A stretch of DNA of 64,000 bases from an uncultured Pseudomonadota bacterium (GCA_964421445.1 CAYQXL010000002.1:13602-77601), one strand, 5' to 3'; positions 37,218-56,589 are shown, counted from the stretch's first letter. Numbers and translations are program-made. Notes: generated from the sequence alone by a model not told the origin.

Positions 37218-37247
37218 TTAACAAATATTTAATTGATAGGTGGCTTG

Positions 37248-37790
37248 ATGGATATCGGCGGAAAAATGCGGGAGTTGAGGGAAAAAAGAGGTTTTACGAT
37301 CAAACGACTCGCGGAGATCGTTGAATGTACTCCGTCTCTCATATCCCAGCTCGAGCGGGGAAAAGCCGATCCGTCAATATCGATGCTGAAGAGAATCGCA
37401 AAAGGATTGAACGTCAATATCATCGATTTTTTCATGACATGTTCCGATGATGATGACGTTGTTACGCGGCTCGATGAACGGATCGATATCCAGTTAAAAA
37501 AATGGGACGCTCGGATTCAGTCTCTCGTCAAAACAGTAACGAATAAAAAGATGCAGCCCTTTTTTACGGTCATTGGGCCTGGCGGTGGTTCGCACGGGAT
37601 CTATTCCCATGAAGGCGAAGAATTCGGATATCTCCTGAAGGGAGAACTGGAACTCGTCCTTAACGACACTGTTCATATCGTAAAGGCAAATGAAAGTTTC
37701 TATTTTTCGTCGCAGACGCCCCATGACTGGAACAACAAAGGTACAGAAGACGCGGTGGTCATCTGGGTTATTACGCCGCCGACGTTTTAA
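37248..37790 (+). CDS. XRE-family HTH regulator with C-terminal cupin sensor domain
   Basis: I chose the ATG at 37248. It has an HTH_3 pattern (LRELREKRGFTIKRLAEIVECTPSLISQLERG) and a cupin pattern (HEGEEFGYLLKGELEL...ESFYFSSQTPH). Confidence 0.85.
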   Translation: MDIGGKMRELREKRGFTIKRLAEIVECTPSLISQLERGKADPSISMLKRIAKGLNVNIIDFFMTCSDDDDVVTRLDERIDIQLKKWDARIQSLVKTVTNKKMQPFFTVIGPGGGSHGIYSHEGEEFGYLLKGELELVLNDTVHIVKANESFYFSSQTPHDWNNKGTEDAVVIWVITPPTF

Positions 37791-37825
37791 AGGAAATCCG
37801 GTTAAAGACTATCAAGGAGGGAATT

Positions 37826-39316
37826 ATGGCAATACTGGCGGAAGTAAGCAAAAATTACGGAAAGCTGGGGCTCTATATAAACGGCGAATGGGTCGCGCCG
37901 GCAGCCGAACAATATTTTGAAACGACCAACCCTGCTACCGGCGAGGTGATTGCCGAAGCTCCAATGGCCTCCAAAGAACAGGTGGATCAGGCCATAGGGG
38001 CTGCCCATGAAGCGTTCAAGAAATGGAGGAACGTGCCTTTTCGGGACAGGGCAAAAATGATCTTTACGCTCAGGGAAAAGTTCGTTGAACATCACGAGAA
38101 GCTCGCCCGTATCCTTGTTCAGGATCACGGATGTACGATTGACGAGGGAAGGGGTACCATTTCGAGATGTATCGAGAATATAGAGGCCGCGGGGAGCGCC
38201 ATGTACAGCTACTACAGGGGCCAGCATGTCGAACAACTGGCGACAGGGATCGACTGTTATCAGGTCTATGAGCCTGTCGGTGTTTTCATGATCATTACGC
38301 CGGGCAACATACCGATGCATGCCTGGTCCTCTTTTGTGCCTTATGCGCTTGCCTGTGGTTGTTCGGTTCTTGTGAAACCGAGTCGTCAATGCCCTGTCTC
38401 TGCCGATGCCATGTTTAAGGTTCTTGACGAGGCGGGTTTTCCGGCCGGTGTGGCGAATCTTCTCCATACAGGCCCCGACAGAAGCCTCAACACCCAGATT
38501 CTCTCCGATCCGAGGGTAAAAGGGGTCGGTCTCATCGGCTCGACCCGGGTCAGCAAGGAGCTTTTTGAACTCTGCGGAAAGTATGGGAAACGATCGTCGC
38601 TTAACGGGAACGGAAAAAATTATATCGTTGTCATGCCTGACTGTGAGCTCGATAATGCAGTGAACTATATACTCCGCGGATGTTTCGGCATGACGGGACA
38701 ACGGTGCCTCGGTTCGGACAATGTGGCTGTGATTGGTGATGACAAAAGGTTTGCCGCATTGAAGGAAAAACTGATCGCCGCTTCTCAGGCGATGAAGATG
38801 GGGTACGGTCTTGATGAAGCAGTGGAACTCGGACCTCTTACAACAGAGAATGGCCGGAATCAGGTTCTCGATTTCATCGATTCAGGGATCAAATCAGGAG
38901 CCAAACTCATCCTTGACGGCCGCACGGTTAGAGTTTCCGGGTATGAGAAGGGGTATTTTCTCGCCCCTACGATCTTCGAAGGGGTTACCCCTGATATGCA
39001 CGTGGCAAAGGAAGAGGCCTTTGGACCAATGTGCAATCTCCTCCGGGCGAATGATCTCGACGAGGCAATCGGGTGGATCAACGGTACCAACTACGGCCAT
39101 TCGGCCTGTATTGTCACGGAGAGCGGAAAGGTTGCCCGGAAGTTCATCAGAGAATGTGACGTTGGAAATGTCGGGGTGAACGCCGGTATTCCCCAGCCTT
39201 TTGCCTTTTTTGGTCTTGGTTCCAAAAAAGATTCCTTTTTCGGCATGTCCAAGTCACGGATGGACTCAATCAAACTCTTCCTCGATGAGAAGACAGTGAC
39301 TCTTCGGTGGGTATGA
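37826..39316 (+). CDS. aldehyde dehydrogenase, methylmalonate-semialdehyde dehydrogenase (CoA-acylating) type
   Basis: 496 aa. ALDH fold with catalytic Cys in FGMTGQRCLG (Arg-Cys as in MMSDH GQRCMA). Asn replaces the general-base Glu 34 residues upstream (LNGNGKNYIVVMPD, compare ANMGAKNH.VVMPDA). SD AAGGAGGG. Confidence 0.8.
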   Translation: MAILAEVSKNYGKLGLYINGEWVAPAAEQYFETTNPATGEVIAEAPMASKEQVDQAIGAAHEAFKKWRNVPFRDRAKMIFTLREKFVEHHEKLARILVQDHGCTIDEGRGTISRCIENIEAAGSAMYSYYRGQHVEQLATGIDCYQVYEPVGVFMIITPGNIPMHAWSSFVPYALACGCSVLVKPSRQCPVSADAMFKVLDEAGFPAGVANLLHTGPDRSLNTQILSDPRVKGVGLIGSTRVSKELFELCGKYGKRSSLNGNGKNYIVVMPDCELDNAVNYILRGCFGMTGQRCLGSDNVAVIGDDKRFAALKEKLIAASQAMKMGYGLDEAVELGPLTTENGRNQVLDFIDSGIKSGAKLILDGRTVRVSGYEKGYFLAPTIFEGVTPDMHVAKEEAFGPMCNLLRANDLDEAIGWINGTNYGHSACIVTESGKVARKFIRECDVGNVGVNAGIPQPFAFFGLGSKKDSFFGMSKSRMDSIKLFLDEKTVTLRWV

Positions 39317-39403
39317 ACGGAAAAAAATAGCCTCCCGTCGGTCTACCGCTCGATTGGAAAACATAGTATGCTTATGCATGGATTCCAATCAAGGAGGACG
39401 GTT

Positions 39404-40486
39404 ATGTGCGAAGAATGCAGGGAGATTTCTCGAAGGGGTTTTCTGAAGGGTGCGTTGATCGGGGGGGCTGCGGCAGGGCTCGGCATCCTCGACAGCAACC
39501 TCCTTCTTGCCCAAAGCTCGACCATCAAATTCAGCACGTGGCATCCACCCGTCAGCCGTGAGGTAAAGACGGTCTGGACCCCGATGATGGAGGAACTGAA
39601 GAAAAAGAGTGGCGGCAAACTCGGTTACACCATGTATGCCGGGGCAGCTCTCGGCAAGGGTCCTGAACATTTCGATATCGTTGCCAAAGGACTCTCGGAT
39701 ATGGGGTATTTTACTGCCACCTGGACGCCGGGACGGTTTCCCCTTACCGATGTCCTCTCGCTTGCTGTCTGGGTTGACGGTAAGGATGTGGCCGCGGATA
39801 TCGGGAACGCAGTCTACACAAGGGCCCTGAAGAATGAGTTCAAGAACGTTAAGGTCCTTGAACTGAACGGGTGTATTCAGTCCTTCATCTGGACGAAGAA
39901 GCCTGTGAGTAAAATGGCCGATCTGAAAGGCATGAAACTCAGGTCTCCCGGAGGTCATCAGACAAACTACATCAAATCCCTCGGAGCGGAACCGGTATTT
40001 ATGCCCCTTGGTGATGTCTATATGGCAATGGAAACAGGGACGGTGGATGGTATTGTAACCTGTCCACCCCTTATCCTGGCATACAAGCTGTACGAAGTGG
40101 CGAAGAACGCGACGGTCCTCACCTTCGGCTGTGTCTCCGAAGGGGCGGTGATGAACATGAATAGCTGGAACAGGCTATCGGGCGATCACAAAAAACTCGT
40201 GGAAGAGGTCTGTACCAACCCTTTCAAATCGACAGGGGGCCTTACACGGGATGACTACAAGGTGATCATGACGGAAATCCAGAAAGCGGGAGTGAAGTTG
40301 ATCGATCTGCCGAAGCCGGAAGCGGACCAGTGGTATAAGAGGTTCCAGGACGTTACACGGAAGTGGGTTACCGACATGGAAGCAAAAGGCCTTCCGGCAA
40401 GGAAGACGGTTGCCATAATGAATGAGGAATGCGAGAAGAGAAAGGTACAGCTCGTTGCCTGTCCTCCCGAGTTTAAGAAGATCTGA
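39404..40486 (+). CDS. dctP: TRAP transporter substrate-binding protein (DctP family) with twin-arginine signal
   Basis: The ATG lies behind AAGGAGGA. SRRGFLKGALIGGAAAGL is a Tat-type signal. DLKGMKLRSPGG contains the conserved carboxylate-binding Arg of DctP proteins. Confidence 0.87.
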   Translation: MCEECREISRRGFLKGALIGGAAAGLGILDSNLLLAQSSTIKFSTWHPPVSREVKTVWTPMMEELKKKSGGKLGYTMYAGAALGKGPEHFDIVAKGLSDMGYFTATWTPGRFPLTDVLSLAVWVDGKDVAADIGNAVYTRALKNEFKNVKVLELNGCIQSFIWTKKPVSKMADLKGMKLRSPGGHQTNYIKSLGAEPVFMPLGDVYMAMETGTVDGIVTCPPLILAYKLYEVAKNATVLTFGCVSEGAVMNMNSWNRLSGDHKKLVEEVCTNPFKSTGGLTRDDYKVIMTEIQKAGVKLIDLPKPEADQWYKRFQDVTRKWVTDMEAKGLPARKTVAIMNEECEKRKVQLVACPPEFKKI

Positions 40487-40501
40487 CAAGAAGAGGTCTG
40501 G

Positions 40502-40996
40502 GTGGGTACCGTGCAGGCTGTGAGGATGTTTGTCGACCGGGTTACGCGGATCATGGGCACCGTGGGAATGATCTTTGTTATCCCCCTCATGCTCCTGACG
40601 ACGGGCGATGTCCTGGGAAGAGGTCTTTTCAATAAACCTATCGCCGGAACGTTTGAGACATCAGAATATATGCTCGCCGTGATAATACTCCTCGGTGCCG
40701 CCTACACCCAGCAGGTCAAGGGTCACGTGGCTGTAGACTTTCTTACGGTCCATTTCAGCGAAAGAGCCCGGTTGATCTGTAAGGTTTTCACCATGGCCCT
40801 GAGCCTCTTCATTGTAACGGTCATCGTATGGCAGGGCTTTGTTCTCGGACTGGAAGAGACGGGCGTTACGGATCAGTTGAGGATACCCAGGGCACCCTTT
40901 AAGATGCTTGTGGGCATTGGGGGATTTTTTTTGTGGCTCCAGGTTCTTTTTGATCTGATCGATGCGGTCCTCGGGCTGAAAAAGAAGGGTATGTGA
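40502..40996 (+). CDS. dctQ: TRAP transporter small permease
   Basis: 164 aa, four TM segments, position between dctP and dctM. A GTG start is assumed; the ATG at 40526 is an alternative. Confidence 0.78.
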   Translation: MGTVQAVRMFVDRVTRIMGTVGMIFVIPLMLLTTGDVLGRGLFNKPIAGTFETSEYMLAVIILLGAAYTQQVKGHVAVDFLTVHFSERARLICKVFTMALSLFIVTVIVWQGFVLGLEETGVTDQLRIPRAPFKMLVGIGGFFLWLQVLFDLIDAVLGLKKKGM

Positions 40997-42300
40997 ATCC
41001 CATAACGATAGGTATACTCGGTTGTTTCGTCATGGTTGTCCTCCTGTTTTTGGGGATGCCTATCACCTTTGTCATGATGTTCGTCGGGTTTTGCGGTATC
41101 TGGTACCTGTCGGGACTGGAGGCCGCCCTTCCGGTAGTCGCGAGCACGCTCTATGAAACGGCTGCCCACTATCCTTTTACCATTATACCTCTTTTTGTCC
41201 TGATGGGCGGTTTTGCCGATGGATCAGGGATAACGACACGCCTCTACGATACATTCGACAAGTGGTTCAGGAGGCTCCCCGGAGGATTGGGTATCGCCAC
41301 CATTGTTGCCATTGCCGGTTTTTCGGCCATCAGCGGTTCATCGGTGGCCACGTCTGCGGCCTTTGCCAAAACGGTCATCCCTGAGATGAGACGATACAAA
41401 TATAAGCCCGGTTTTGCCGGTGGAATCGTTGCAGCAGGGGCGACCATCGACTTCCTGATACCCCCTTCCATCGGGTTCGTGGTTTACGGGATGCTTACGG
41501 AGCAATCGATCGGCAAGCTCCTCATAGCCGGTATGCTCCCCGGTCTTCTCCTCGCCGCCCTTTTTGTGGCAATCATTGTGGCATGGGTCACGATCAACCC
41601 GTCCATTGCCCCTGTTCCTCCCGGGAGGCCGACATGGAAAGAGCGGCTTTTTTCCCTCTGGGGCATGTGGGAAACACTCGTCGTCTTTCTCGTCACCATC
41701 GGAGGGATGTACCTCGGGTACGTCAATCCGACGGAGGCGGGAGGGATCGGATGCATATCCCTGCTTGCCATTACCCTTATCAAGAAAGAACTTACCTGGA
41801 AGCAGTTTGTCGACAGCCTCTATGAGACAACGCGGGTGACCTGCATGGTCATGTTTCTTGTTGCCGGAGCCAGCCTGTTCAGCTATTTTCTTGCTCTCTC
41901 CACGATCCCTACGGCAGCTTCATCGTGGATTTCAGGCCTTGGGGTTTCACGGTATATGGTTCTCATCATTGTTGTCGGGGTCTATCTCGTCCTCGGGTGT
42001 TTTCTCGATGCTGTTTCCATGATGGTTCTTACCATGCCCGTTGTCTTTCCGGTTATGGTAGGCCTCGGATTTGACCCCATATGGTTCGGCGTGATCTGCG
42101 TTCTTATGATGAATGCCGGCCTTATCACCCCGCCTGTCGGTCTCAATGTGTATACCATCGCAGGTATCGTTCGCGATGTGCCCATGAAAGACGTTTTTAA
42201 GGCCGCAACCCCCTTTCTCATAGCGATCCTGGTGACGGCGGTCATTCTGACCGTCTTTCCCGTGATCGCGACCATATTGCCGGCCCAAATGGTCAGGTAG
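40993..42300 (+). CDS. dctM: TRAP transporter large permease
   Basis: 435 aa, polytopic. The GTG start overlaps the dctQ stop (GTGA). Typical DctM pattern (LLFLGMPI..., PPSIGFVVYG). Confidence 0.92.
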   Translation: MNPITIGILGCFVMVVLLFLGMPITFVMMFVGFCGIWYLSGLEAALPVVASTLYETAAHYPFTIIPLFVLMGGFADGSGITTRLYDTFDKWFRRLPGGLGIATIVAIAGFSAISGSSVATSAAFAKTVIPEMRRYKYKPGFAGGIVAAGATIDFLIPPSIGFVVYGMLTEQSIGKLLIAGMLPGLLLAALFVAIIVAWVTINPSIAPVPPGRPTWKERLFSLWGMWETLVVFLVTIGGMYLGYVNPTEAGGIGCISLLAITLIKKELTWKQFVDSLYETTRVTCMVMFLVAGASLFSYFLALSTIPTAASSWISGLGVSRYMVLIIVVGVYLVLGCFLDAVSMMVLTMPVVFPVMVGLGFDPIWFGVICVLMMNAGLITPPVGLNVYTIAGIVRDVPMKDVFKAATPFLIAILVTAVILTVFPVIATILPAQMVR

Positions 42301-42346
42301 GAGAGGATATGGTTCGATCGGCATGCCAGGGCTGGAGGTGCGGGGG

Positions 42347-42823
42347 ATGAAGAAGATATATTTTGTGCTCAATGGAAAGCCAGTGGAAGCGAATGTAGAA
42401 GATAATGAGACGGTTATCGAGATGCTCCGGGAGAGGTTTGGCCTGAAAAGTGTGAAAGAGGGCTGCTCTATCGGCGAATGCGGTGTCTGTACTGTTCTCG
42501 TCGACGATGAACCACGGTACGGGTGTTTGACCCTTTCGTTCAAAGTGGACGGAAGGGACGTGAAAACCGTCGAGTTTCTTGGAGATGGGGAGAACATTCA
42601 TCCTCTCCAGCAATCATTCATGGAGAGTGGGGCTGTCCAGTGTGGCTACTGTACGCCGGCCATGCTTCTGACGGCTTACAGCCTCCTCCTGAAGAAGGGG
42701 AAGGGGTTGACCAGGGACGATATCCGTGGGGCTCTCAGCGGTAACCTGTGCCGCTGTACGGGCTATATTCAGATTATTGAGGCTGTGGAAAATGCTGCCG
42801 GAATTCTCGACAGAAATCGCTGA
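42347..42823 (+). CDS. molybdenum hydroxylase [2Fe-2S] small subunit (CoxS/XdhC-iron-sulfur type)
   Basis: Plant-type cluster motif CSIGECGVCTV plus the second-cluster motifs QCGYCTPAM and CRCTGY. Confidence 0.92.
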   Translation: MKKIYFVLNGKPVEANVEDNETVIEMLRERFGLKSVKEGCSIGECGVCTVLVDDEPRYGCLTLSFKVDGRDVKTVEFLGDGENIHPLQQSFMESGAVQCGYCTPAMLLTAYSLLLKKGKGLTRDDIRGALSGNLCRCTGYIQIIEAVENAAGILDRNR

Positions 42824-43628
42824 GTCCAAAGACGATGCCCTGAAGAGGCTTGCCCGCGATCCTTCGGCAAAGATCATGGCCGGAGGAACGGATCTTCTCA
42901 TCACGATGAGAAAAGGGAAACGATGGCCCGTGGTCCTGGACATTTCATCGATTCCGTCGCTATCGTACATTTCTTCCCACGAAGAGACCCTCTCTCTCGG
43001 ATCGCTGGCGACTCACGGGATGATCGCCGCCGATGAAACCGTGCGGGATTATGCCCCGGGCCTCGCCTATGCCTGCAGCCAGATAGGATCTCCCCAGATC
43101 AGAAACGCCGGAACTCTTGGCGGCAACCTCGTCAATGCATCGCCCGCTGCTGATTCCCTTCCTCCTCTTCTCGTTCATGACGGGTCAGTGATCCTTGAAT
43201 CCCTTCAGGGCACGAGAGAGGTGCCGATAGAGGAGTTTATCGCCGGTCCCTATAAAACAACGATCGAGCCCTACGAACTCGTCTCAGCGGTGCGCCTGAA
43301 AGTGTTGAAGGATTGCCGTCAGGGGTACCGCAGAGTTGCCAAGAGAGCAACCTGGGCCATTTCGCGACTTTCCCTGGCCTGGGCCCTGACTGAGGGGGAT
43401 GGACGATTCGGGGAGGTGCGGCTCGCTGTAGGGTCATGTACCCCTGCGCCTTTCAGGGCCAGAAAGGTGGAGGATTTTTTGAGGGGAATGGAAAAGACTG
43501 AAAGGACGATCGCCCGGGCAGTCAAGATAATGACTGATGAAATCGTGGCAGTCAGCGGGGTGCGGCCTTCCTATCTCTACAAAATCCCCGTCCTGGAAGG
43601 GCTTATGAGAATGGTTCTGGAGAAATAG
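42792..43628 (+). CDS. molybdenum hydroxylase FAD-binding medium subunit (CoxM type)
   Basis: I chose the internal ATG (MLPEFSTEIAESKDDALKRL...IMAGGTDLL); it overlaps the small-subunit gene by 32 nt. AGTLGGNL FAD motif. Confidence 0.87.
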   Translation: MLPEFSTEIAESKDDALKRLARDPSAKIMAGGTDLLITMRKGKRWPVVLDISSIPSLSYISSHEETLSLGSLATHGMIAADETVRDYAPGLAYACSQIGSPQIRNAGTLGGNLVNASPAADSLPPLLVHDGSVILESLQGTREVPIEEFIAGPYKTTIEPYELVSAVRLKVLKDCRQGYRRVAKRATWAISRLSLAWALTEGDGRFGEVRLAVGSCTPAPFRARKVEDFLRGMEKTERTIARAVKIMTDEIVAVSGVRPSYLYKIPVLEGLMRMVLEK

Positions 43629-43632
43629 GCGA

Positions 43633-45780
43633 ATGAACATCGGCATTCCGATTCCCCGTACGGACAGTATGGATAAGGTCCTTGGCAGGCCGCTCTTTGC
43701 CGGCGATATCTATCCCAGAGACGCTCTCCATGCTGCGGTGGTCAGGAGCACCCGTCCTCACGCCAGGGTCAGGTCCGTCGATATCCGCCGGTCACTTGAG
43801 ACTCCGGGGGTCGTAAAGATCCTCTCGGCCCGTGATATTCCCGGTGAAAACCTCTTCGGAGCCATACGGAAGGACCAGCCCTTTCTTGCAGGAGAAATTG
43901 TCAGGTATGCCGGTGAGCCCCTCCTTGTCGTTGTGGCCGAAACGGATCGCCAGGCCCGGGAAGGTGCCGATCGTGTGAGAATCGGCTACGATGACCTGGA
44001 TGTTCTCATCGATCCGGTTACCACAAGCCGTTCACCTGCCTCCATTCACGATGAGGGCAATCTTCTGAGCATGCGGCGGGTTGTGAAAGGTGACGCATTA
44101 CGGGCCCTTAAAGACTGCGACGTGGTCGTAGAGAACACTTACAGGACAGGATGGCTCGATCATGCTTTTCTTGAGACGGAGGCGGGGTTCGGGTATCAGG
44201 ATGAACGGGGGCGCATTGTTGTTGTTTCGTCCACCCAGAACATTCATTACAAGATGAAAGAGATCTCCCGCCTTCTCGCAATGCCCGAGGATCGTATCCG
44301 TGTCATACAGGCCACGACAGGCGGTGGGTTCGGAGGGAAGCTCGATGTGACCGTTGAGGGCTTTATCGCACTTGCCGTCTATCATACGGGCCGTCCGGTG
44401 GTGATGCGGTTCAGCCGGGAAGAAAGCTTCCTTTCCAATACCAAACGGCACCCCCTCTACGTGGAATACAGGACAGGAGCGAAAAAGGATGGCTCCATTC
44501 TGGCTGTGGACGTGTCGATCGTCGGTGATACCGGTCCCTATGCATCCTACGGCGAGACAGTCTGCCTGAGGGCCGCCATTCATGCCACGGGACCGTACGA
44601 GGTTCCTCACGTTTCAGTGGAGAGCCGCATGTACTACACGAACAATCCCGTATCCGGGGCTATGAGGGGTTTTGGTATCCCCCAGCTTGCCTTTGCCCAC
44701 GAATCTCAAATGGACGAAGTGGCGAAAGCGCTGAACATGGATCCCTTCGACATCAGGATGAAGAACGGGTTGAGGAAGGGATCATTGACGGCGACATCCC
44801 AGGTTCTTGAGGCCAGCGCCGGATTTATCGACACATTGAAGGCTGTTGAGCCCTTTTGGCGAGGACGGAAGAAAGACCATGGTGAACAGGGATTCGGTCT
44901 GGGATGCATGTTTTACGGCTGTGGAAATACGGGGATATCGAATCCTTCATCGGCCTACATCACGGTACGGGGCGATGGGAGAATTGCTCTCCATACAGGT
45001 GTCTGTGAAATAGGACAGGGCTCTGACACCATACTCGTTCAGATTGTCCAGGAGACAGTTGGATGCGGTAAAGATGACATTGTTCTCGTCCGGGGGGACA
45101 CGGACACATCCCGCGATGCAGGTTCATCGTCGGCGAGCCGGCAGACCTATATCTCGGGGAAGGCCGTACAGAGGGCCGCCGAGAACCTCCGAATCTACCT
45201 TGATAAAAAAGGTTTTCCAGGCGGTGATAAACTCACGGACGTCTGTCGTCGCGACAAGGACCTCCCTTCGCTGGTCTTCGACGGATATTTCGATCCTCCT
45301 GCAGGGACCGTTGATCCTGTGACGTCCCAGGGAAGTCCCTATGGAACGTATGCATTTGCGACCCACCTGTCTGAAGTGAATGTGGAGGAAATCACAGGTA
45401 TCTGTTCGGTAAAAAGAGTCTATGCCGCCCATGACGTAGGACGGGCCATCAACGTCCATAACATTAAAGGTCAGATCTGTGGCGGCGTGGCCATGGGCAT
45501 AGGATTCGCCCTGATGGAGGAATTTGTTCCCGGCCGGACCGAATCGCTCGATACATATTACCTTCCCACGTCAGCCGATATGCCTGAAATTGAAGCTCTG
45601 ATCATCGAAAACCACGAGCCCACCGGGCCCTTCGGGGCAAAGGGGGTAGGCGAGCCGGCTCTCATTCCCCAGGCAGCGAGTATCGTGAACGCCATCTGTG
45701 ATGCGACCGGTGTGCGACCCTTCAGATTGCCCGTTGATATGGAAAGGCTGAAGGAGCTTTTGGGAAAGAAGCGGGAATAA
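43633..45780 (+). CDS. molybdenum hydroxylase molybdopterin-binding large subunit (xanthine dehydrogenase family)
   Basis: 715 aa. GGGFGGK, AMRGFGIPQ and GVGEPAL (catalytic Glu) motifs. The substrate cannot be read from the sequence. Confidence 0.92.
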   Translation: MNIGIPIPRTDSMDKVLGRPLFAGDIYPRDALHAAVVRSTRPHARVRSVDIRRSLETPGVVKILSARDIPGENLFGAIRKDQPFLAGEIVRYAGEPLLVVVAETDRQAREGADRVRIGYDDLDVLIDPVTTSRSPASIHDEGNLLSMRRVVKGDALRALKDCDVVVENTYRTGWLDHAFLETEAGFGYQDERGRIVVVSSTQNIHYKMKEISRLLAMPEDRIRVIQATTGGGFGGKLDVTVEGFIALAVYHTGRPVVMRFSREESFLSNTKRHPLYVEYRTGAKKDGSILAVDVSIVGDTGPYASYGETVCLRAAIHATGPYEVPHVSVESRMYYTNNPVSGAMRGFGIPQLAFAHESQMDEVAKALNMDPFDIRMKNGLRKGSLTATSQVLEASAGFIDTLKAVEPFWRGRKKDHGEQGFGLGCMFYGCGNTGISNPSSAYITVRGDGRIALHTGVCEIGQGSDTILVQIVQETVGCGKDDIVLVRGDTDTSRDAGSSSASRQTYISGKAVQRAAENLRIYLDKKGFPGGDKLTDVCRRDKDLPSLVFDGYFDPPAGTVDPVTSQGSPYGTYAFATHLSEVNVEEITGICSVKRVYAAHDVGRAINVHNIKGQICGGVAMGIGFALMEEFVPGRTESLDTYYLPTSADMPEIEALIIENHEPTGPFGAKGVGEPALIPQAASIVNAICDATGVRPFRLPVDMERLKELLGKKRE

Positions 45781-45875: not shown

Positions 45876-47030
45876 ATGAGTACGTTAACCATACAGAATA
45901 TTGGCGTTGTCTTCACCGGTGATTTGAGTGCTCCTGTCATCGAAGGACCTTGTGCGGTCTATGTGGAAGACGGAAAGATTGCAGCAGTCGGGACGACCGG
46001 TGATTTTACCGCCGATAAGGTCATCGATGCCAATGGAATGACAGTCTGTCCCGGTCTTATCGATTCCCATACGCACCCTGTCTTCGGTGATTTTACACCA
46101 CGGCAGAATCAGCTTGGGTTTATCGAAAGCAGTCTTCACGGTGGTGTGACTGCCATGATATCAGCCGGCGAGGTTCATCTCCCAGGCCGGCCTACCGATC
46201 CAAAGGGGACGAAGGCCCTCGCTTTGCTTGCGCAGCGGTCGTTTGCGAAGCTGAGGCCTGCCGGTGTAAAGGTGTACGGTGGCGCGTTAATCCTCGAAAA
46301 AGGTCTTACTGAGGACGATTTCCGGGAACTGTCGGACGATGGTGTCCGCCTCGTCGGTGAAATAGGACTGGGGAGCATCAAATCGGCGAGTGAAGCGAAG
46401 ACAATGGTTGAGTGGGCCAAGAAATACGGCATGAAAGTGATGATGCATGTCGGTGGTACGTCGGTGCCGGGAAGTTCGACCGTCACCTGCGATGATGTTC
46501 TCACGGCAGATCCCACCGTTGCCTGTCATCTCAATGGTGGTCCGACAAGTGTCCCTGTTGATGAAGCGAAACGGATCATCAACGAATCTCAGGTGACAGT
46601 CGAGATCGTCCATTGTGGCAATATGCTGTCGGCTTTCGAGATCGGCAGGTACATGAAGAACAGGAACCTCCTCAGCCGGCTGATTATCGGGAATGATGCG
46701 CCGTCGGGAACGGGTGTCATTCCTCTCGGAATATGGAGGATGGTTGCGTACCTCTCCGCTCTCTGCGGCGTCTCCGCTGAGATGGCCGTCTGCTGCGCCA
46801 CCGGCACCACGAAGACCGTCTATGATCTGTCGCACGGGATGATCCGGGTCGGCGACGATGCAGACCTTCAGATTATTGATGCACCGATGGGGTCGGCCGG
46901 GTCGGATGCGAAATCGGCGATAGAGGCAGGTGATATTCCCGGCGTTGCGATGGTTGTTATTGATGGTCTCGTGAAAACAGGAGTGAGCAGGAATACGCCG
47001 CCTCCTGTGAGAAAGGCTGTGATCCTCTGA
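45876..47030 (+). CDS. amidohydrolase-superfamily enzyme, enamidase-like
   Basis: 384 aa. Composite beta-sandwich N-terminus and the DSHTHP metal motif. Size and context (next to the Hnr-like gene and a Mo hydroxylase) match enamidase of nicotinate fermentation. SD AGGAGG. Confidence 0.6.
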   Translation: MSTLTIQNIGVVFTGDLSAPVIEGPCAVYVEDGKIAAVGTTGDFTADKVIDANGMTVCPGLIDSHTHPVFGDFTPRQNQLGFIESSLHGGVTAMISAGEVHLPGRPTDPKGTKALALLAQRSFAKLRPAGVKVYGGALILEKGLTEDDFRELSDDGVRLVGEIGLGSIKSASEAKTMVEWAKKYGMKVMMHVGGTSVPGSSTVTCDDVLTADPTVACHLNGGPTSVPVDEAKRIINESQVTVEIVHCGNMLSAFEIGRYMKNRNLLSRLIIGNDAPSGTGVIPLGIWRMVAYLSALCGVSAEMAVCCATGTTKTVYDLSHGMIRVGDDADLQIIDAPMGSAGSDAKSAIEAGDIPGVAMVVIDGLVKTGVSRNTPPPVRKAVIL

Positions 47031-47089: not shown

Positions 47090-48601
47090 ATGAAGATCGA
47101 TCTGGATAAATGTATCGGATGCGGGTTCTGTGAAGAGGTCTGTCCTCTCGGTGTACTTGCCGTTGAGGAGAAAAAGGTCCGGATGCGACCGGGATGTGTT
47201 GACTGCAAAACCTGCATGAAGGTCTGTCCCAAGTCGGTCTTTTCCCTTGCCGAAGAAGTTGGTTTCCCTGTCTGTGACGCCTGTCCTGTCATGTGCCGCA
47301 TACCTGAAGAAGGCTACGGCGCCTGTCTGCGTTACCGGAATGTCAAGGGCGAGATCGTCAGGGAGGGACGTGTCCATACGTACGAAGAGGTAAAGGATAT
47401 CGTCCGGCAGGGTGCGGATAGCCGTGCGATCGAAGAGCCTCTCATCACAGGTATAGGATCGGGAACGACCTATCCCGATTTCAGGCCTTCACCTTTTATC
47501 GTGAGCGGCGTAAGGGACGGTGTCGATATTATCACCGTTGTGACAGAAGCCCCCCTCAGTTACAGCGGAATAAAGCTGAAAGTCGATACGGATCTCGGCC
47601 TTGGGCAGGAAGGGCAGGGTGTCTACATCGTGAAGAAGGGCAGACGCCGTATCGGCCATCTCTGTACGGAAGAATATGGGTCGAAGATCCTCTCCTTGGG
47701 CGGGGTCAACATCTTTACCTCGAAAGATGGCCTTTTCGCAGCCCGTGCAATGGCTGAATTGCTCGGGGGCCGGGCAATCACTGTAGAAGTCGAGAATGGT
47801 CCGAGGATCGAACTCTGTCTCGGAAAGGGGCCACGGGTGGATGGAAGGACGGAGGAACGGATGAGGGTGGGGTGCGGGAGCGCAACCACCGGTCTGTTTG
47901 CCCCGTATATGTTGACTGCAGCCGATGAAGTCGTGGTCCTCGATGGCCACATTACCGGTCTTTTCAGTGAGCATCCTTCCGGGCGCTATCTGGGAAAGAA
48001 GCGCTCTCCAGTGGAGATTGTCGGCCAAAAAAACACGGAAGGACGGTACTTTCTCACCAAGGGGAACGGGTGGGGAGGAACAGATGTCGTCAATCCCCTC
48101 GATGCTGTTGGCGTGAAAGACTTCCGGACCGTTCCGGAAGGTATGACTCTTCTCGTAACAGAGACAACGGGGCGAATGTTCGCTTTCTTTCGATTTACCG
48201 ACGGAGCGTTCAGGGAAGACGAACCCACTCAGGATGCCCTGAAATTTCTTCAGGTCCTCAGGGAATCCTGCGAGCCATCGATGGTGACCGCTGTCTTTGC
48301 TGCCGGAATAGGGGGCTCGGCCCGGGCGGGGGTCACGAAGAACCCTATCAGACTGACGAAGGCTGTTCATGAAGGCCGGGTGTCGGTCACGATAGGCGGT
48401 GCGAAACCCTTCATTTTTCCTGGCGGAGGCATCAATTTTCTCGTCGATGTTCAAAAAATAAGGCATGGCAGTATCTATCTTACGCCAACGCCGTCCTTTG
48501 TGCTCCCTGTGGAGTACACGATGACGAAAGAGACCTTCGAGGCTATCGGCGGGCATGTTGAGGCAATAAGACCGGTCGACGAAGTTGTGAAAAAGGGATG
48601 A
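47090..48601 (+). CDS. 6-hydroxynicotinate-reductase-like iron-sulfur protein
   Basis: 503 aa. N-terminal 2x[4Fe-4S] ferredoxin motifs CIGCGFCEEVCP and CVDCKTCMKVCP, a further Cys cluster CDACPVMC...C, and a large uncharacterised C-terminal domain. The assignment rests on architecture and context only. Confidence 0.5.
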   Translation: MKIDLDKCIGCGFCEEVCPLGVLAVEEKKVRMRPGCVDCKTCMKVCPKSVFSLAEEVGFPVCDACPVMCRIPEEGYGACLRYRNVKGEIVREGRVHTYEEVKDIVRQGADSRAIEEPLITGIGSGTTYPDFRPSPFIVSGVRDGVDIITVVTEAPLSYSGIKLKVDTDLGLGQEGQGVYIVKKGRRRIGHLCTEEYGSKILSLGGVNIFTSKDGLFAARAMAELLGGRAITVEVENGPRIELCLGKGPRVDGRTEERMRVGCGSATTGLFAPYMLTAADEVVVLDGHITGLFSEHPSGRYLGKKRSPVEIVGQKNTEGRYFLTKGNGWGGTDVVNPLDAVGVKDFRTVPEGMTLLVTETTGRMFAFFRFTDGAFREDEPTQDALKFLQVLRESCEPSMVTAVFAAGIGGSARAGVTKNPIRLTKAVHEGRVSVTIGGAKPFIFPGGGINFLVDVQKIRHGSIYLTPTPSFVLPVEYTMTKETFEAIGGHVEAIRPVDEVVKKG

Positions 48602-48613
48602 TGGCTGACCGGT

Positions 48614-49465
48614 TTGCGGGAAGGAAACTGGACCGTGTTTATTGATATTGGACCGGTATCGATGTATGTGGTGACAGAGAAAGACGGATCTCGCCATGAT
48701 CCCTGCCGATCAGAGACGGAAGCATTCATAGGACGAAATCTCGGAATGATAGGTGACTGTCTTCCGGTGCTTCGTCAAAGGGCCGGGAGAATTGTCAGGT
48801 ATTCCCACCTTCCCCCTGTTGCGGCGATGATGATTCGGGCTGCCCAAACTGTCGACGGAGCTTCACTGACACCGATGGCAGCGGTAGCCGGCGCCGTATC
48901 GGAAGTGGTGAAAGATTATCTGAAAGATCAGGGCTTCGATTTTATTTCCGTCAATAACGGAGGGGATGTGGCCATATTCAACGCCGGCGGAAGGAGTCTC
49001 TCCGTAGCGATCGGCGATATCCGGACCGGTCATGCCAGTCCTTATACGCTCGTCATCAGCCGTTCGGGGGACTATGGTGTGGCCACAAGCGGTCTGGAGG
49101 GAAGAAGCTTTACCCTCGGCGTTGCCGATTCTGTCACTGTTATCGCAGACTCGGCACCCGTGGCTGATGCAGCGGCCACATTCGTAGCAAACAACGTCAC
49201 TGTCGATTCACCTGTGGTGGTGAGAATGAGGGCAGGGGATGTTGATCCCACAAGTGATATTGCCGGGGAAGAGATCGTTGTAGCAGTCGGTGAATTGGAA
49301 GAATCGGAGATATCCGCCGCCCTGGAGCGGGGATTGGTTGTTGCCCGGACCCTTAAAGCCGAGGGAGTAATCTGTGATGCTGTGCTGCAGGTCAAAAAAC
49401 GGATGGCAACGACAATTGAGAAGACCACTACTATCATGCTCGAGGTGAACTATGGAAATACGTAA
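48614..49465 (+). CDS. UPF0280 / ApbE-fold family protein
   Basis: 283 aa. The LTPMAAVAGAVSEVV and SVNNGGDVA motifs are what I associate with UPF0280. The start is uncertain (TTG 48614, ATG 48662). Confidence 0.55.
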   Translation: MREGNWTVFIDIGPVSMYVVTEKDGSRHDPCRSETEAFIGRNLGMIGDCLPVLRQRAGRIVRYSHLPPVAAMMIRAAQTVDGASLTPMAAVAGAVSEVVKDYLKDQGFDFISVNNGGDVAIFNAGGRSLSVAIGDIRTGHASPYTLVISRSGDYGVATSGLEGRSFTLGVADSVTVIADSAPVADAAATFVANNVTVDSPVVVRMRAGDVDPTSDIAGEEIVVAVGELEESEISAALERGLVVARTLKAEGVICDAVLQVKKRMATTIEKTTTIMLEVNYGNT

Positions 49466-50027
49466 AATTGTAACGGTTGTTGAAGATGTTCTCATGGAAG
49501 GAGGAAAAGCGATGGCGCGGCCCTTGCGAAAAGTGGCCTGTATCGCTGTTATCAGGAATCCCTATGCAGGAAAATATGAGGAAGATCTGTCAGCTCTTGT
49601 TGATTTCAGCGAAGAAGTAGGTGCGATAATTTCTGCCCGGGCGGTGGCCATGCTTGAACCGGACAGGAAGCCTGAGAGCTATGGGAAGGCAGCCATTGTT
49701 GGCGAAAAAGGCGAACTGGAACATGCAGCGGCTCTCCTCCATCCCAAACTGGGGACACCTCTCCGGACCGCTGTCGGCGGCGGCAAGGCTATTATCCCAT
49801 CCGCGAAAAAGATGGGTCGCATGGGAGATTCGATCGACATCCCCCTTCACTACAAAGACGCTGCTTTTGTCCGCTCCCACTTTGACGGAATGACTGTCTC
49901 TGTAGGAGATGCGCCGAGATCGGACGAAATCGTCCTTGCTGTAGCCGTGACTGACGGTGGAAGACCCCTTGCGCGGGTCGGGGGCCTGAAGAAGGACGAA
50001 GCGAAAGGTGAAGACGGATTAAGATAG
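49452..50027 (+). CDS. DUF1185 ('amino acid synthesis') family protein
   Basis: 191 aa. MEIRKIV..EGGK...AVIRNPYAG...YGKAAIVGEKGELEHAAALLHP...IDIPLHYKD...DAPRSDEIVLAVAVTDGGRP follows the family pattern. SD GAGGTGA. It overlaps the upstream gene by 14 nt. Confidence 0.68.
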   Translation: MEIRKIVTVVEDVLMEGGKAMARPLRKVACIAVIRNPYAGKYEEDLSALVDFSEEVGAIISARAVAMLEPDRKPESYGKAAIVGEKGELEHAAALLHPKLGTPLRTAVGGGKAIIPSAKKMGRMGDSIDIPLHYKDAAFVRSHFDGMTVSVGDAPRSDEIVLAVAVTDGGRPLARVGGLKKDEAKGEDGLR

Positions 50028-50377
50028 GATTACCTGTGATGGAGAGGCTAATGCCTGGTGGTAGGTGGTCTCATTGCAGATCATCCCGCCAGGCAGCCAA
50101 ACCCCTTCATCGACTCTCTGCCCCCCCTTAAACATAGACACGTTCCATTCCCGCATTTTCCTGTTCCCTGCATTCTCCTGCCCGTAACCGTTTTTATGCC
50201 ACCGGAAACAACGAGATGTGAATCGCACCCTGGCGAAACGGTGTCTGCCATGTGGTGGTCCGGCCTCTTCTCTTTGAACGGTATGTTCCAGGAAATCAGT
50301 AAGGAGAACAGTTAAAAGGAGAGTCTCAAATCATGTTTTAAATTTCATGAAATATGAAAAATAATACATGAAATTCC

Positions 50378-50406
50378 TTGACAATAAAACTTCGGGGGTA
50401 TATAAA
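50378..50406 (+). promoter_or_regulatory. candidate sigma70 promoter of the GntR-ABC operon
   Basis: TTGACA (50378-83), 17-nt spacer, TATAAA (50401-06). It lies inside the 5' end of the track ORF, which argues for the downstream ATG at 50413. Confidence 0.45.
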
Positions 50407-50412
50407 CGTATT

Positions 50413-51087
50413 ATGGCAGACGTAATGAAGGTCCACAAACAGCGTCTCAGCAATCAGGTCTATGACATTGTCAAAGAGATGATTGCCAACCATCGGTTTG
50501 AACCAGGTACACGATTGAACGTCGAGCAGATTGCCAAAGAAGTCGGGGCAAGCAGGACCCCTGTATGGGAGGCTGTTCATCGGCTCATACAGGAAGGTCT
50601 TCTTGAAAACATACCGAACAGGGGTGTGTTCATGGTGAGCCTGACGCCTGTTACGGCACGCGAACTCTATACGGTCAGAGAGGTTCTGGAAGGTCTTGCG
50701 GCCCGTTTGGCAATTGAGAATACCGACGAACGGCTGATAAGAAAGATGACGAAAATCCTCAAAGAGCAGGACAAGGTCATTCGGAGGGGGGATCTTGTCG
50801 GATATTCGAAGTCGGACTTTGATTTCCATGCTCTCGTTTATGAAGCGAGTGGCAACAGGACCCTTCAGGAGATGCTCGAAGAGATCAAAAACAAAATGAG
50901 ACCGATTTCTATGCACATACAACCAATATTGAGTGAGCTCTATGCCGATCATCTGAAGATACTCGAAGCGTTCAAGGATCGGGATCGGGAGAAAGCGGAA
51001 AAGGCATTTCTCGATCATAACAGGCAGATGATCCGGAAGATTGAGGAGAGTGCGACAGAAAAGGAGTGGTCAGCGGCGAAAGGATGA
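50413..51087 (+). CDS. GntR-family regulator with FCD ligand domain
   Basis: HTH pattern LSNQVYDIVKEMI...LNVEQIAKEVGASRTPVWEAVHRLIQEGLL and a C-terminal FCD-like helical domain. Start is 50413 (or 50425/50368). Confidence 0.87.
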   Translation: MADVMKVHKQRLSNQVYDIVKEMIANHRFEPGTRLNVEQIAKEVGASRTPVWEAVHRLIQEGLLENIPNRGVFMVSLTPVTARELYTVREVLEGLAARLAIENTDERLIRKMTKILKEQDKVIRRGDLVGYSKSDFDFHALVYEASGNRTLQEMLEEIKNKMRPISMHIQPILSELYADHLKILEAFKDRDREKAEKAFLDHNRQMIRKIEESATEKEWSAAKG

Positions 51088-51143
51088 AGGAAGAAAATGG
51101 GCAAGGGTTTTGAACGGGAGAAATAACCATAAGGAGGAGTCCA

Positions 51144-52406: not shown

Positions 52407-52420
52407 TCATATGAACGACA

Positions 52421-52451
52421 GAGGCGGGGTCTTCAAGGCCCCGTCTCCTTT
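52421..52451 (+). terminator. stem-loop / partial terminator after the binding-protein gene
   Basis: GAGGCGGGGTC (52421-31) pairs with GGCCCCGTCTC (52437-47), including two G:U pairs, around a 5-nt TTCAA loop. It is followed by CTTT. The position after the SBP gene is typical for differential expression. Confidence 0.45.
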
Positions 52452-52468
52452 ACCCTGGAGAGACTATT

Positions 52469-53925: not shown

Positions 53926-53984
53926 GGCAGACACTGTGAAGAGAGGCGAGAGAACGAACAGAACAGAGAAAAGGAGAGAGACAG

Positions 53985-54647: not shown

Positions 54648-54663
54648 TTACGGATGGAATACG

Positions 54664-54707
54664 GTTTTAGCGGCCGGGGGGATGTCTGTACCCCTGACCG
54701 CTAAAAC
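54664..54707 (+). other. strong intercistronic stem-loop between the hydrolase and permease genes
   Basis: Perfect 10-bp stem GTTTTAGCGG (54664-73) / CCGCTAAAAC (54698-707) with an inner GGGG/CCCC helix. No T-tract follows. Confidence 0.5.
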
Positions 54708-54752
54708 GGGCAGGAAAAAGGGTTCCTGAAAGGGCCACAACAGGAGGAGATA

Positions 54753-55736: not shown

Positions 55737-55738
55737 CC

Positions 55739-56572: not shown

Positions 56573-56589
56573 CAACGAAAGGAGGGTGG

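Follow-up and report, generated by a model that had tools for sequence, protein, structure and literature searches.

A recurrent Hnr–UPF0280–DUF1185 gene block in an anaerobic nicotinate operon, and possible roles for its two small proteins

Introduction

In the window examined here (the whole stretch of DNA, 64,000 nucleotides in length), a gene for a 6-hydroxynicotinate reductase-like protein (Hnr) is followed by two smaller genes, one for a protein of the UPF0280 family and one for a DUF1185 protein. Do the three belong together, and what might the two small proteins do? The original prediction saw a three-protein reductase module, in which the UPF0280 protein would flavinylate Hnr, while DUF1185 would be a subunit or handle an intermediate.

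Hnr is the sole enzyme among the first three steps of nicotinate fermentation for which there is no solved structure; those of the other two are available (2VUN, 3HRD). If UPF0280 were a maturase for Hnr, this could explain any trouble in making active recombinant Hnr, and would assign a function to a family present in hundreds of genomes. It would also mean that ApbE-type flavinylation reaches a cytosolic client, with a recognition site that is new and catalytic machinery that has changed. Thousands of annotations carry a misleading name for DUF1185, which its link to pyridine-carboxylate catabolism corrects; the link also suggests a role for TgnF-like proteins.

The operon and its boundaries

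The operon comprises the following features.

37233..42300, + strand: operon head, with HTH-cupin regulator, MMSDH-like aldehyde dehydrogenase and TRAP transporter DctPQM (Pfam and NCBIfam)
42323..45780, + strand: nicotinate dehydrogenase-like Mo-hydroxylase, with 2Fe-2S, FAD and 715-aa Mo subunits (Pfam and NCBIfam; PDB 3HRD_A)
45876..47030, + strand: enamidase orthologue, the pathway step after Hnr (PDB 2VUN match)
47090..48601, + strand: Hnr-like 6-hydroxynicotinate reductase, 503 aa (ORF confirmed)
48614..49465, + strand: UPF0280/ApbE-fold protein; longest ORF from TTG 48614 (283 aa), probable true start GTG 48635 (276 aa)
49452..50027, + strand: DUF1185 (PF06684, 'AA_synth') protein, 191 aa, overlapping the UPF0280 gene by 14 nt

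The block is the final part of an anaerobic operon for the breakdown of nicotinate (vitamin B3), which provides for uptake, nicotinate dehydrogenase, enamidase, Hnr and an aldehyde dehydrogenase for the ring-opened product. Judged by sequence, the dehydrogenase and enamidase are clear orthologues of those of Eubacterium barkeri: the enamidase matches 2VUN over its full length (E 1e-124), and the best PDB match of the Mo subunit is 3HRD_A, the L subunit of E. barkeri nicotinate dehydrogenase (E 7e-115). The order of the Hnr, nicotinate dehydrogenase and enamidase genes is conserved in related loci, most of which also retain the operon-head genes. The type of transporter that flanks Hnr clusters has been proposed to carry nicotinate (PMC3511419). 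Compared with the E. barkeri cluster and the proteobacterial clusters derived from it, the first three enzymes are common, whereas the Mo subunit is one chain here and split into L and M subunits in E. barkeri. A TRAP transporter and an MMSDH-like aldehyde dehydrogenase take the place of the B12-dependent lower pathway, and the host is a Syntrophorhabdaceae-like Desulfobacterota organism.

All three ORFs of the block are present on the + strand at the predicted coordinates. Downstream of DUF1185 there is a 340-nt gap, and then a separately promoted GntR gene; the block therefore ends the operon, as had been proposed. A scan for promoters and terminators yielded counts no higher than those in shuffled controls, and an Rfam search of the 64-kb window gave zero matches.

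The predicted 14-nt overlap between the UPF0280 and DUF1185 genes is real, with a Shine-Dalgarno sequence (GAGGTG) at 49442-49447. The UPF0280 start had been placed 13 nt past the Hnr stop codon. This applies to the longest ORF, but translation probably starts at GTG 48635, which is preceded by GAAGGA (48620-48625); homologues start at the corresponding MFIEVGP. The gap to the Hnr stop is then about 33 nt rather than 12-13. An in-frame TGA between Hnr and UPF0280 was considered as a readthrough site, and treated as coincidence since the junction is unconserved in other loci.

The reductase

The identification of 47090..48601 as an Hnr-like 6-hydroxynicotinate reductase (EC 1.3.7.1) holds on sequence similarity. 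Among its 7747 homologues, several are named 6-hydroxynicotinate reductase in the source, and identity to PGAP-annotated Hnr on plasmids is 38-44%. Three regions stand out.

47090..47239, + strand: N-terminal 2x[4Fe-4S] ferredoxin domain, aa 1-50 (Pfam Fer4 families); Cys 8, 11, 14, 18 and 36, 39, 42, 46 invariant
47273..47326, + strand: third Cys motif, C62-x2-C65-x3-C69-x9-C79, candidate [2Fe-2S] site, invariant in two alignments (A1 and A4)
47438..47494, + strand: invariant loop P117...G-x-G-x-G-T126-T127-Y-P-D...P135, with aerobic forms included in the comparison

The ferredoxin domain is missing from aerobic proteobacterial versions of Hnr. C69 and C79 of the third motif are invariant in the aerobic forms too; by analogy with the E. 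barkeri enzyme, to which a [2Fe-2S] cluster is reportedly assigned, this motif is a candidate [2Fe-2S] site. The core of the protein has no match in Pfam, even at E values up to 10, and no recognisable flavin-binding domain. The AlphaFold2 model (pLDDT 82) has no structural neighbour in the PDB. Its only low-confidence segment (pLDDT <50) spans aa 94-133 and includes the invariant loop, which may be a loop for a cofactor, a partner protein or flavinylation. A resemblance of the G-I-G-S-G-T-T-Y-P-D stretch to G-I-D-x-G-G-T-F-T-D of hydantoinase A (ASKHA fold) was rejected (hhalign probability 0.4%).

Genomic linkage of the three genes

Linkage was counted in 62 species-level Desulfobacterota genomes with enough DNA downstream of Hnr. 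DUF1185 follows Hnr in every one of them (62/62). The complete order Hnr-UPF0280-DUF1185 is found in 58, one of which has a UPF0280 fragment only (intact 57/62); the remaining 4/62 have Hnr-DUF1185 without UPF0280. This arrangement is far beyond chance. Co-occurrence of the three genes has already been described (PMC3511419).

The block also recurs in other phyla and in divergent metagenomic lineages. Plasmids of alpha- and betaproteobacteria carry hnr-UPF0280-DUF1185-DUF1185, even when the enamidase and Mo-enzyme genes are elsewhere or replaced. Two Clostridia-like loci (L084 and L086) carry the block. In three divergent loci (L103, L104 and L106), UPF0280 comes directly after Hnr and the contig then ends, while in a fourth (L105) the trio is complete but permuted, as UPF0280-DUF1185-Hnr. 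In four further divergent Hnr-like loci on short contigs (L098, L099, L101 and L102), neither small gene adjoins Hnr. Of 27 plasmids with UPF0280, 26 are the 26 plasmids with Hnr. The block is tied to Hnr, not to the Mo-hydroxylase or the enamidase. Given that the trio is kept intact in distantly related bacteria, it is very probable that the small proteins serve Hnr or its product.

Could the gene order simply have been inherited, or have hitch-hiked, with no functional tie to Hnr? Most of the closest 80 loci belong to one phylum and have the whole operon order in common, as this would predict. Yet the trio survives rearrangement of all its surroundings, occurs in other phyla and on plasmids, is found with a different electron-input module, and is permuted in L105. 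Mere inheritance is therefore a very improbable explanation, and the cross-phylum and permuted-order data come close to refuting it.

UPF0280: a divergent ApbE-fold protein

Family membership was assessed at several levels. The NCBIfam model PRK04334.1-2 matches with an E value of 1e-60, at 204.9 bits against a cut-off of 290; PF27030 (AbpE_bact) is precomputed on all close homologues, and the plasmid orthologues carry the PGAP name 'UPF0280 family protein'. A literature search on the name 'UPF0280' found no paper. The Pfam ApbE profile (PF02424) scores 25.3 bits, below its gathering cut-off of 25.6, and covers aa 83-168 only. A profile search against ApbE chains in the PDB was marginal (E 0.1-0.5), and hhalign against E. 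coli Ftp gave E 2e-5. The predicted ApbE fold is borne out by the AlphaFold2 model (pLDDT 93) and Foldseek together: the top match is 2o34 (E 1e-10), and the next 39 significant PDB matches are all ApbE, Ftp or FmnB. Both motifs singled out in the original prediction, PMAAVAGAVSE and SVNNGGD, occur in the translation.

Relative to ApbE/Ftp proteins (PF02424; PDB 6NXI, 4XGV, 4IFU, 7ESA), the fold is the same (Foldseek probability 1.0, TM ~0.5), and the GGD and TSG core motifs are common to both, as is the Asp...Thr pair that binds Mg2+. Unlike these proteins, UPF0280 is some 60 residues shorter, has no lipoprotein signal, and has lost the loop with the catalytic His. Hhalign places this deletion at H-x-x-D-P-x-T-G, whose His is H257 in V. 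cholerae; the UPF0280 alignment contains no invariant His. The protein is cytosolic, and the sequence has no signal peptide. Two invariant motifs align with segments of E. coli Ftp.

48953..48967, + strand: invariant N-N-G-G-D, aa 114-118 (alignments A2 and A3), aligned to V-S-V-G-G-A of E. coli Ftp
49163..49180, + strand: invariant A-D185-A-A-A-T189, aligned by hhalign to E-A-D-A-W-D-T of E. coli Ftp; counterpart of the Mg2+ ligand pair in ApbE/Ftp

In Treponema pallidum Ftp, D284 and T288 are first-sphere Mg2+ ligands and essential (PMC4436053).

The closest solved structure, DVU1097 (2O34, a UPF0280/DUF375 structural-genomics protein; profile E 1e-16), has both NGGD and ADAAAT, at only ~20% identity. 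At the position of G-R-S in the Hnr-linked clade it has G-H-S, and its gene stands alone in Desulfovibrionaceae, with no Hnr nearby. The sister clade of this type occurs without any Hnr, and Hydrogenophaga copies of UPF0280 are orphans at IS1071 borders.

Does UPF0280 flavinylate Hnr?

The E. barkeri reductase was reportedly described by Alhapel in 2006 as carrying covalently bound flavin. The ApbE fold and the Asp/Thr pair favour the proposal that UPF0280 attaches it, but the His loop is deleted, and Hnr, the presumed client, lacks both an FMN_bind domain and an SGAT motif. The ApbE target motif D-x-x-[ST]-G-A-[ST] is found in 0/62 Hnr sequences, as is the shorter [ST]GA[ST], and there are no occurrences in DUF1185 or the enamidase. 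The nearest approach in Hnr is S-G-T-T at aa 124-127.

Synteny also counts in favour of the proposal; against this, the UPF0280 gene is absent or truncated in 5/62 loci with intact Hnr, and the sister clade occurs without any Hnr. In the Hnr proteins from the five loci, all conserved Ser, Thr, His and Cys residues are still present. A residue lost together with UPF0280 was sought as a marker of the flavinylation site; none is lost, and only G245 varies.

Cytosolic ApbE proteins that flavinylate soluble reductases are known (PMC12052999). Our best guess, which we hold tentatively and at slightly less than even chances, is that UPF0280 works as a maturase dedicated to Hnr, for flavin or another cofactor. 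Alternatively, covalent flavin could be attached autocatalytically, on one of the invariant residues H190, H287, H295, H489, C262 or C394.

DUF1185: a misleading name

The DUF1185 protein matches PF06684 with 245.5 bits against a cut-off of 27, over positions 1-175 of 175. Its PDB matches are SPO0826 (2QTP), a close homologue (E 7e-67), and BB2672 (3BYQ; E 8e-39). Both have an oligomeric, Bacillus chorismate-mutase-like fold, and BB2672 is a hexamer (PMC2954203). The protein is 37-38% identical to TgnF-type proteins and groups with the Hnr-linked clade; a set of Lys, Glu, His and Arg residues is conserved across both clades. On plasmids, the other DUF1185 genes are mostly found in tgn (trigonelline) or other N-heterocycle clusters. 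'Amino acid synthesis' is a misleading name, as had been suspected on the basis of this locus alone.

The original prediction knew of no experimentally defined role for either family. For DUF1185 this is out of date: TgnF is reported to assist succinate-semialdehyde (SSA) dehydrogenase in trigonelline catabolism (PMC7913881, citing Perchat 2018). HcdD, another DUF1185 protein, had no measurable effect in vitro (PMC7913881). TgnF of Acinetobacter baylyi and the protein studied here share the Pfam family and the conserved residues, and both are encoded in pyridine-3-carboxylate catabolic clusters that yield a formyl- or semialdehyde-dicarboxylate. In contrast to the present protein, TgnF belongs to another clade, has an extended C-terminus and other neighbours (the alpha/beta hydrolase TgnD, and TgnABC), and has its reported effect on SSA dehydrogenase, not on a reductase. 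The DUF1185 protein here is not a TgnF orthologue, nor does its gene lie in a tgn-type context.

The TgnF precedent (PMC7913881) raises the prospect that neither small protein touches Hnr. Both would act downstream on small molecules: DUF1185 would assist the aldehyde dehydrogenase of the operon as TgnF does, or speed enamine/imine hydrolysis or the decarboxylation of 2-formylglutarate, and UPF0280 would be a hydrolase or transferase that depends on Mg2+ and has a nucleotide or pathway metabolite as its substrate. The MMSDH-like aldehyde dehydrogenase is indeed co-conserved in the operon, the DUF1185 fold is typical of small-molecule enzymes (PMC2954203) and has conserved polar residues, and T. 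pallidum Ftp doubles as an FAD pyrophosphatase (PMC4436053). However, in Sagittula, Neorhizobium and Comamonadaceae the block follows Hnr in loci that contain neither enamidase nor aldehyde dehydrogenase, and among plasmids UPF0280 is almost exclusive to Hnr loci. A purely downstream role is accordingly quite unlikely.

Proposed mechanism

The reading preferred here assigns a role to each protein. In Hnr, electrons would enter through the N-terminal 2x[4Fe-4S] domain and the third Cys cluster and pass to a flavin in a catalytic domain of unprecedented fold, where the C4=C5 bond of 6-hydroxynicotinate would be reduced. UPF0280 would be a divergent, cytosolic ApbE-type protein that still binds a Mg2+-nucleotide such as FAD, and would serve as a dedicated maturation factor that delivers flavin to Hnr or attaches it. 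Since there is neither a His loop nor an SGAT motif, its chemistry or its target site would have to be unlike those of canonical ApbE; the flexible Hnr loop G-x-G-x-G-T126-T127-Y-P-D is the best candidate for docking or attachment. DUF1185 would be a TgnF-type helper, a small oligomeric enzyme with no part in amino-acid biosynthesis, which would take a labile ring or aldehyde intermediate around the Hnr and enamidase steps and pass it to the next enzyme. The account as a whole is provisional and somewhat more apt to fail in some part than to stand entire; both flavinylation by UPF0280 and a physical complex of the three proteins are inferences.

A broader version can be envisaged, in which UPF0280 represents a new, His-less cytosolic branch of the ApbE superfamily that places flavin on a non-canonical site of Hnr (e.g. 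T126/T127), the catalytic domain of Hnr is a flavin fold without a solved relative, and DUF1185 proteins (TgnF, HcdD and the Hnr-linked clade) are general helpers for labile ring-opened intermediates of N- and O-heterocycles. Taken together, these extensions are speculative and rather doubtful.

Alternatively, UPF0280 and DUF1185 might be permanent subunits of a heteromeric Hnr holoenzyme, in which UPF0280 provides an additional redox or substrate site through non-covalently held FAD or FMN, a DUF1185 hexamer is the scaffold, and neither turns over a separate substrate. Start and stop codons that overlap, or lie only a very short spacer apart, point to co-translation in stoichiometric amounts, and the constant presence of DUF1185 (62/62 loci) at an identity of 60-81%, compared with 46-72% for Hnr, would suit a subunit. 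So would the two DUF1185 paralogues of the aerobes, as expected of a hetero-oligomer, the hexameric state of BB2672 (PMC2954203), and the invariant, unmodelled loop of Hnr, which could need a partner. Against this, UPF0280 has been lost in ~8% of loci while Hnr is intact, and it evolves fast (33-51% identity). DUF1185 homologues also work in clusters without Hnr, such as tgn and hcd (PMC7913881). Permanent subunits are, on this evidence, an unlikely arrangement.

Gene fusions bear on both the maturation-and-helper reading and the subunit alternative. A search among Hnr homologues for Rosetta-stone fusions found no natural Hnr-UPF0280 or Hnr-DUF1185 fusion, which counts against either. Two apparent cases (P0483 and P0461) were frameshifted mistranslations of high-GC sequence, and the long matches P0368 and P0369 are actually fusions of Hnr with a GltD-like NAD(P)H flavoprotein module.

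Gene organisation of the Hnr block

Three genes form the block that closes the operon:

47090-48601, + strand: Hnr, a 6-hydroxynicotinate reductase-like protein of 503 aa with an ATG start
48614-49465, + strand: UPF0280, an ApbE-fold gene, 283 aa as the longest ORF
49452-50027, + strand: DUF1185 (PF06684), 191 aa

All three ORFs lie where the original prediction had placed them, and the peptide motifs it quoted for UPF0280 are present. The overlap of UPF0280 and DUF1185 was also reproduced; DUF1185 begins 14 nt ahead of the UPF0280 stop, with GAGGTG (49442-49447) upstream of its start. The block does end the operon, as had been proposed, because DUF1185 is followed by 340 nt without an ORF and then by a GntR/FCD regulator, which heads a second operon. 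The spacer between Hnr and UPF0280 needs correction. UPF0280 homologues begin with MFIEVGP, corresponding here to GTG 48635 (with GAAGGA upstream at 48620-48625); the spacer is therefore about 33 nt, rather than the 12-13 nt given earlier.

At this junction (48599-48637), the UPF0280 ORF shares its reading frame with the TGA that ends Hnr (48599-48601), and just four codons separate this TGA from TTG 48614. Coincidence is a likelier explanation than readthrough, since the junction varies among other loci, where the two genes overlap or are separated by gaps of various lengths.

The operon and its predicted pathway

The following operon members precede the block:

upstream of the block, + strand: HTH-cupin regulator
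37826-39316, + strand: aldehyde dehydrogenase; the closest match is CoA-acylating methylmalonate-semialdehyde dehydrogenase (383 bits, below cut-off)
upstream of the block, + strand: TRAP transporter
upstream of the block, + strand: xanthine-dehydrogenase-family Mo enzyme, three subunits
upstream of the block, + strand: amidohydrolase with an enamidase match

Along its whole length, the amidohydrolase matches Eubacterium barkeri enamidase (PDB 2VUN; E 1e-124). Among solved structures, the Mo subunit is most closely related to the E. barkeri nicotinate dehydrogenase large subunit (3HRD_A; E 7e-115). JGI and NCBI use the name 6-hydroxynicotinate reductase for close relatives of the 503-aa protein; the nearest (70-72% identity) come from Syntrophorhabdaceae MAGs. 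Taken together, these matches and names indicate that the operon encodes the route from nicotinate via 6-hydroxynicotinate and 1,4,5,6-tetrahydro-6-oxonicotinate to 2-formylglutarate. It adds a new member to the family of nicotinate clusters known from E. barkeri and proteobacteria. Neither pathway nor system holds a surprise; the point of interest is the fold of Hnr and the attachment of its cofactor.

By analogy, the aldehyde dehydrogenase (37826-39316) could convert 2-formylglutarate into glutaryl-CoA and CO2; if so, it would stand in for the lower pathway of E. barkeri, which depends on B12. The Mo-binding part of E. barkeri nicotinate dehydrogenase is split into L and M subunits, whereas the Mo-binding subunit in the window (43633-45780) is a single chain of 715 aa, of which 3HRD_A spans just aa 9-404. 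The longest ORF of the FAD subunit (42726-43628) overlaps the gene for the 2Fe-2S subunit by about 100 nt; its true start is probably further downstream, because the Pfam match begins at aa 27.

Conservation and genomic context of the block

A survey using one genome per GTDB species yielded 491 genomes with a relative of Hnr, the best 80 of which all belong to Desulfobacterota or Syntrophorhabdia. Linkage was counted in 62 loci from these closest 80, each with 2 kb or more of sequence downstream of Hnr. DUF1185 is present in 62/62 of these informative loci, and UPF0280 is intact between Hnr and DUF1185 in 57. In one further locus (L044) UPF0280 is reduced to an N-terminal fragment, and in the other four (L029, L031, L069 and L073) DUF1185 follows Hnr directly, without UPF0280.

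The block also recurs elsewhere. Sagittula, Neorhizobium and one Comamonadaceae strain carry plasmid-borne hnr-UPF0280-DUF1185-DUF1185, and two low-GC metagenomic lineages have the order enamidase-Hnr-UPF0280-DUF1185. Among divergent Hnr-like representatives (36-49% identity), UPF0280 lies immediately 3' of Hnr in L103, L104 and L106, where the contigs then end. In locus L105 (2-2576) the trio is permuted to UPF0280-DUF1185-Hnr, and a sulfite/nitrite-reductase-like gene comes next; in L098, L099, L101 and L102, all on short contigs, other genes adjoin Hnr. The block thus follows Hnr, rather than the Mo enzyme or the enamidase; the association has survived rearrangement and is not universal. 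The co-occurrence survey that had been suggested bears out the trio on plasmids, in low-GC metagenomic lineages and in 57/62 Desulfobacterota loci, and functional linkage among Hnr, UPF0280 and DUF1185 is strongly supported. Its quantification is new.

A reverse search covered 72,556 plasmids, of which 26 carry Hnr and 27 carry UPF0280, the latter being the 26 Hnr plasmids plus one from Hydrogenophaga. This near-exclusive association of UPF0280 with Hnr among plasmids is likewise new. The Hydrogenophaga plasmid, pBPS33-1, has orphan UPF0280 in four places (e.g. L087 1078-2010 and 11887-12819), abutting IS1071 transposase borders. These copies have Rieske oxygenase cassettes alongside but no Hnr; they are probably remnants of a capture by a composite transposon. 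UPF0280 also has a sister clade, represented by DVU1097 (crystal structure 2O34), which is stand-alone in Desulfovibrionaceae, with no conserved neighbour.

The plasmid-borne hnr genes of Sagittula, Neorhizobium and Comamonadaceae are without the N-terminal 2x[4Fe-4S] domain and adjoin a ferredoxin-NADP reductase gene. In two of these three loci (Sagittula and Neorhizobium), hydantoinase A/B genes replace the enamidase, which suggests that the lactam is opened there by a different step, possibly one that requires ATP. These aerobic alpha-/betaproteobacterial loci, each with two DUF1185 paralogues, are:

L081, 8000-12494
L082, 7875-12704
L083, 822-12545

Other Hnr homologues (P0368, 982 aa; P0369, 969 aa; L099 2412-5321) are fused with a GltD-like NAD(P)H:flavin/Fe-S module, which in one case interrupts Hnr. 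This module is a third type of electron input for the same catalytic core.

The Hnr protein

The invariant cysteines of Hnr comprise two [4Fe-4S] motifs and a third motif, C-x2-C-x3-C-x9-C. For the remaining 440 residues, Pfam gives no match at E values up to 10, and a PDB search with the AF2 model (pLDDT 82) finds no structural neighbour (best E 0.046). The catalytic part may be a flavoenzyme fold that has no solved representative yet. It corresponds to 47267-48601, roughly 440 residues.

The E. barkeri enzyme was reportedly described by Alhapel in 2006 as carrying covalently bound flavin. The canonical ApbE target, D-x-x-[ST]-G-A-[ST], occurs in 0/62 Hnr sequences; that Hnr has neither this motif nor any known flavin-binding fold is new. 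The nearest approach is S-G-T-T in the invariant loop G-x-G-x-G-T126-T127-Y-P-D, which lies in the sole low-confidence segment of the model (aa 94-133). In the ApbE motif the Asp is dispensable, and an Ala-to-Val change leaves about 50% flavinylation (reviewed in PMC12052999); given such tolerance, a degenerate site in the T126-T127 loop is conceivable.

The UPF0280 protein and possible flavinylation of Hnr

The AF2 model of UPF0280 (pLDDT 93) is closest to 2O34 in the PDB (E 1e-10), and all further neighbours are ApbE/Ftp/FmnB flavin transferases (E about 1e-5, probability 1.0, TM about 0.5). Sequence similarity to ApbE is marginal: the Pfam ApbE score is 25.3 bits (cut-off 25.6), and ApbE chains in the PDB give E values of 0.1-0.5. 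Profile alignment with E. coli Ftp (E 2e-5) gives the four correspondences below.

Motifs of UPF0280 and their counterparts in E. coli Ftp
UPF0280 V-N-N-G-G-D: Ftp V-S-V-G-G-A
UPF0280 A-T-S-G: Ftp S-T-S-G
UPF0280 A-D185-A-A-A-T189: Ftp E-A-D-A-W-D-T
UPF0280 deleted: Ftp segment S-H-V-I-D-P-Q-T-G-R-P, with the catalytic His

The corresponding Asp and Thr of Treponema pallidum Ftp are first-sphere Mg2+ ligands whose mutation abolishes activity (PMC4436053). The aligned UPF0280 sequences have no invariant His, and UPF0280 has no signal peptide. It is thus a cytosolic ApbE-fold protein, one that probably still binds a Mg2+-pyrophosphate ligand; with the His loop deleted, the canonical general base would not be usable. 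This combination of fold, ligands and missing loop is new; a literature search found no paper mentioning UPF0280 and none tying ApbE-like proteins to nicotinate catabolism.

The original prediction that UPF0280 may flavinylate Hnr is favoured by the fold, the Mg2+ ligands and the linkage of the trio; the lost His loop and the missing client motif, two departures from canonical ApbE systems, speak against it. Flavinylation is the best single hypothesis, if a tentative one, somewhat short of even odds. The prediction as a whole holds in its observation and has partial support in its interpretation. Two further tests lent no support to a physical or maturation link. Hnr from loci lacking UPF0280 has lost none of the conserved Ser, Thr, His or Cys residues. 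Among the best 150 representatives at 50% identity, no genuine fusion of Hnr with UPF0280 or DUF1185 was found; long Hnr homologues considered as trio fusions proved to be GltD-like NAD(P)H flavoprotein fusions or frameshift artefacts.

The DUF1185 protein

The DUF1185 protein matches PF06684 at full length (245 bits) and its close relative SPO0826 (2QTP) with E 7e-67. Of the two copies in the aerobes, it is the orthologue of the second, with 54-60% identity as against 36-48% to the first. With proteins of the type of TgnF, the DUF1185 protein of the trigonelline (tgn) pathway, it shares 37-38% identity and a conserved set of Lys, Glu, His and Arg; this tie to TgnF-type helpers is new.

DUF1185 occurs in 389 of the plasmid records. 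Those inspected without Hnr hold tgn clusters (Acinetobacter, Sinorhizobium, Leisingera and Klebsiella); in Mariluticola, the context is an amidohydrolase/monooxygenase/SSADH cluster. What the DUF1185 contexts share is the breakdown of pyridine-3-carboxylates and related heterocycles, with a labile lactam, lactone or formyl-dicarboxylate as intermediate. TgnF stimulates TgnE-dependent oxidation of succinate semialdehyde, according to a passage of PMC7913881 citing Perchat 2018; for HcdD, a DUF1185 protein encoded next to a coumarin ene-reductase, no effect could be measured (PMC7913881). DUF1185 had been predicted to be either a subunit of the reductase or an intermediate handler. The TgnF-type contexts favour the latter, with DUF1185 a putative helper enzyme for a labile intermediate of heterocycle catabolism and a structural subunit of Hnr the less likely alternative.

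The 'amino-acid' label of the family derives from adjoining Liv-type ABC transporter genes (PMC2954203). Such genes also flank Hnr clusters, where the transporter has been proposed to carry nicotinate (PMC3511419). In the window, the second operon (50368-57918) encodes, besides its GntR/FCD regulator, a Liv-type binding protein, two ATPases, two permeases, a DUF4147/MOFRL protein and an isochorismatase-family hydrolase, possibly a nicotinamidase-like amidase; this operon may feed the nicotinate pathway.
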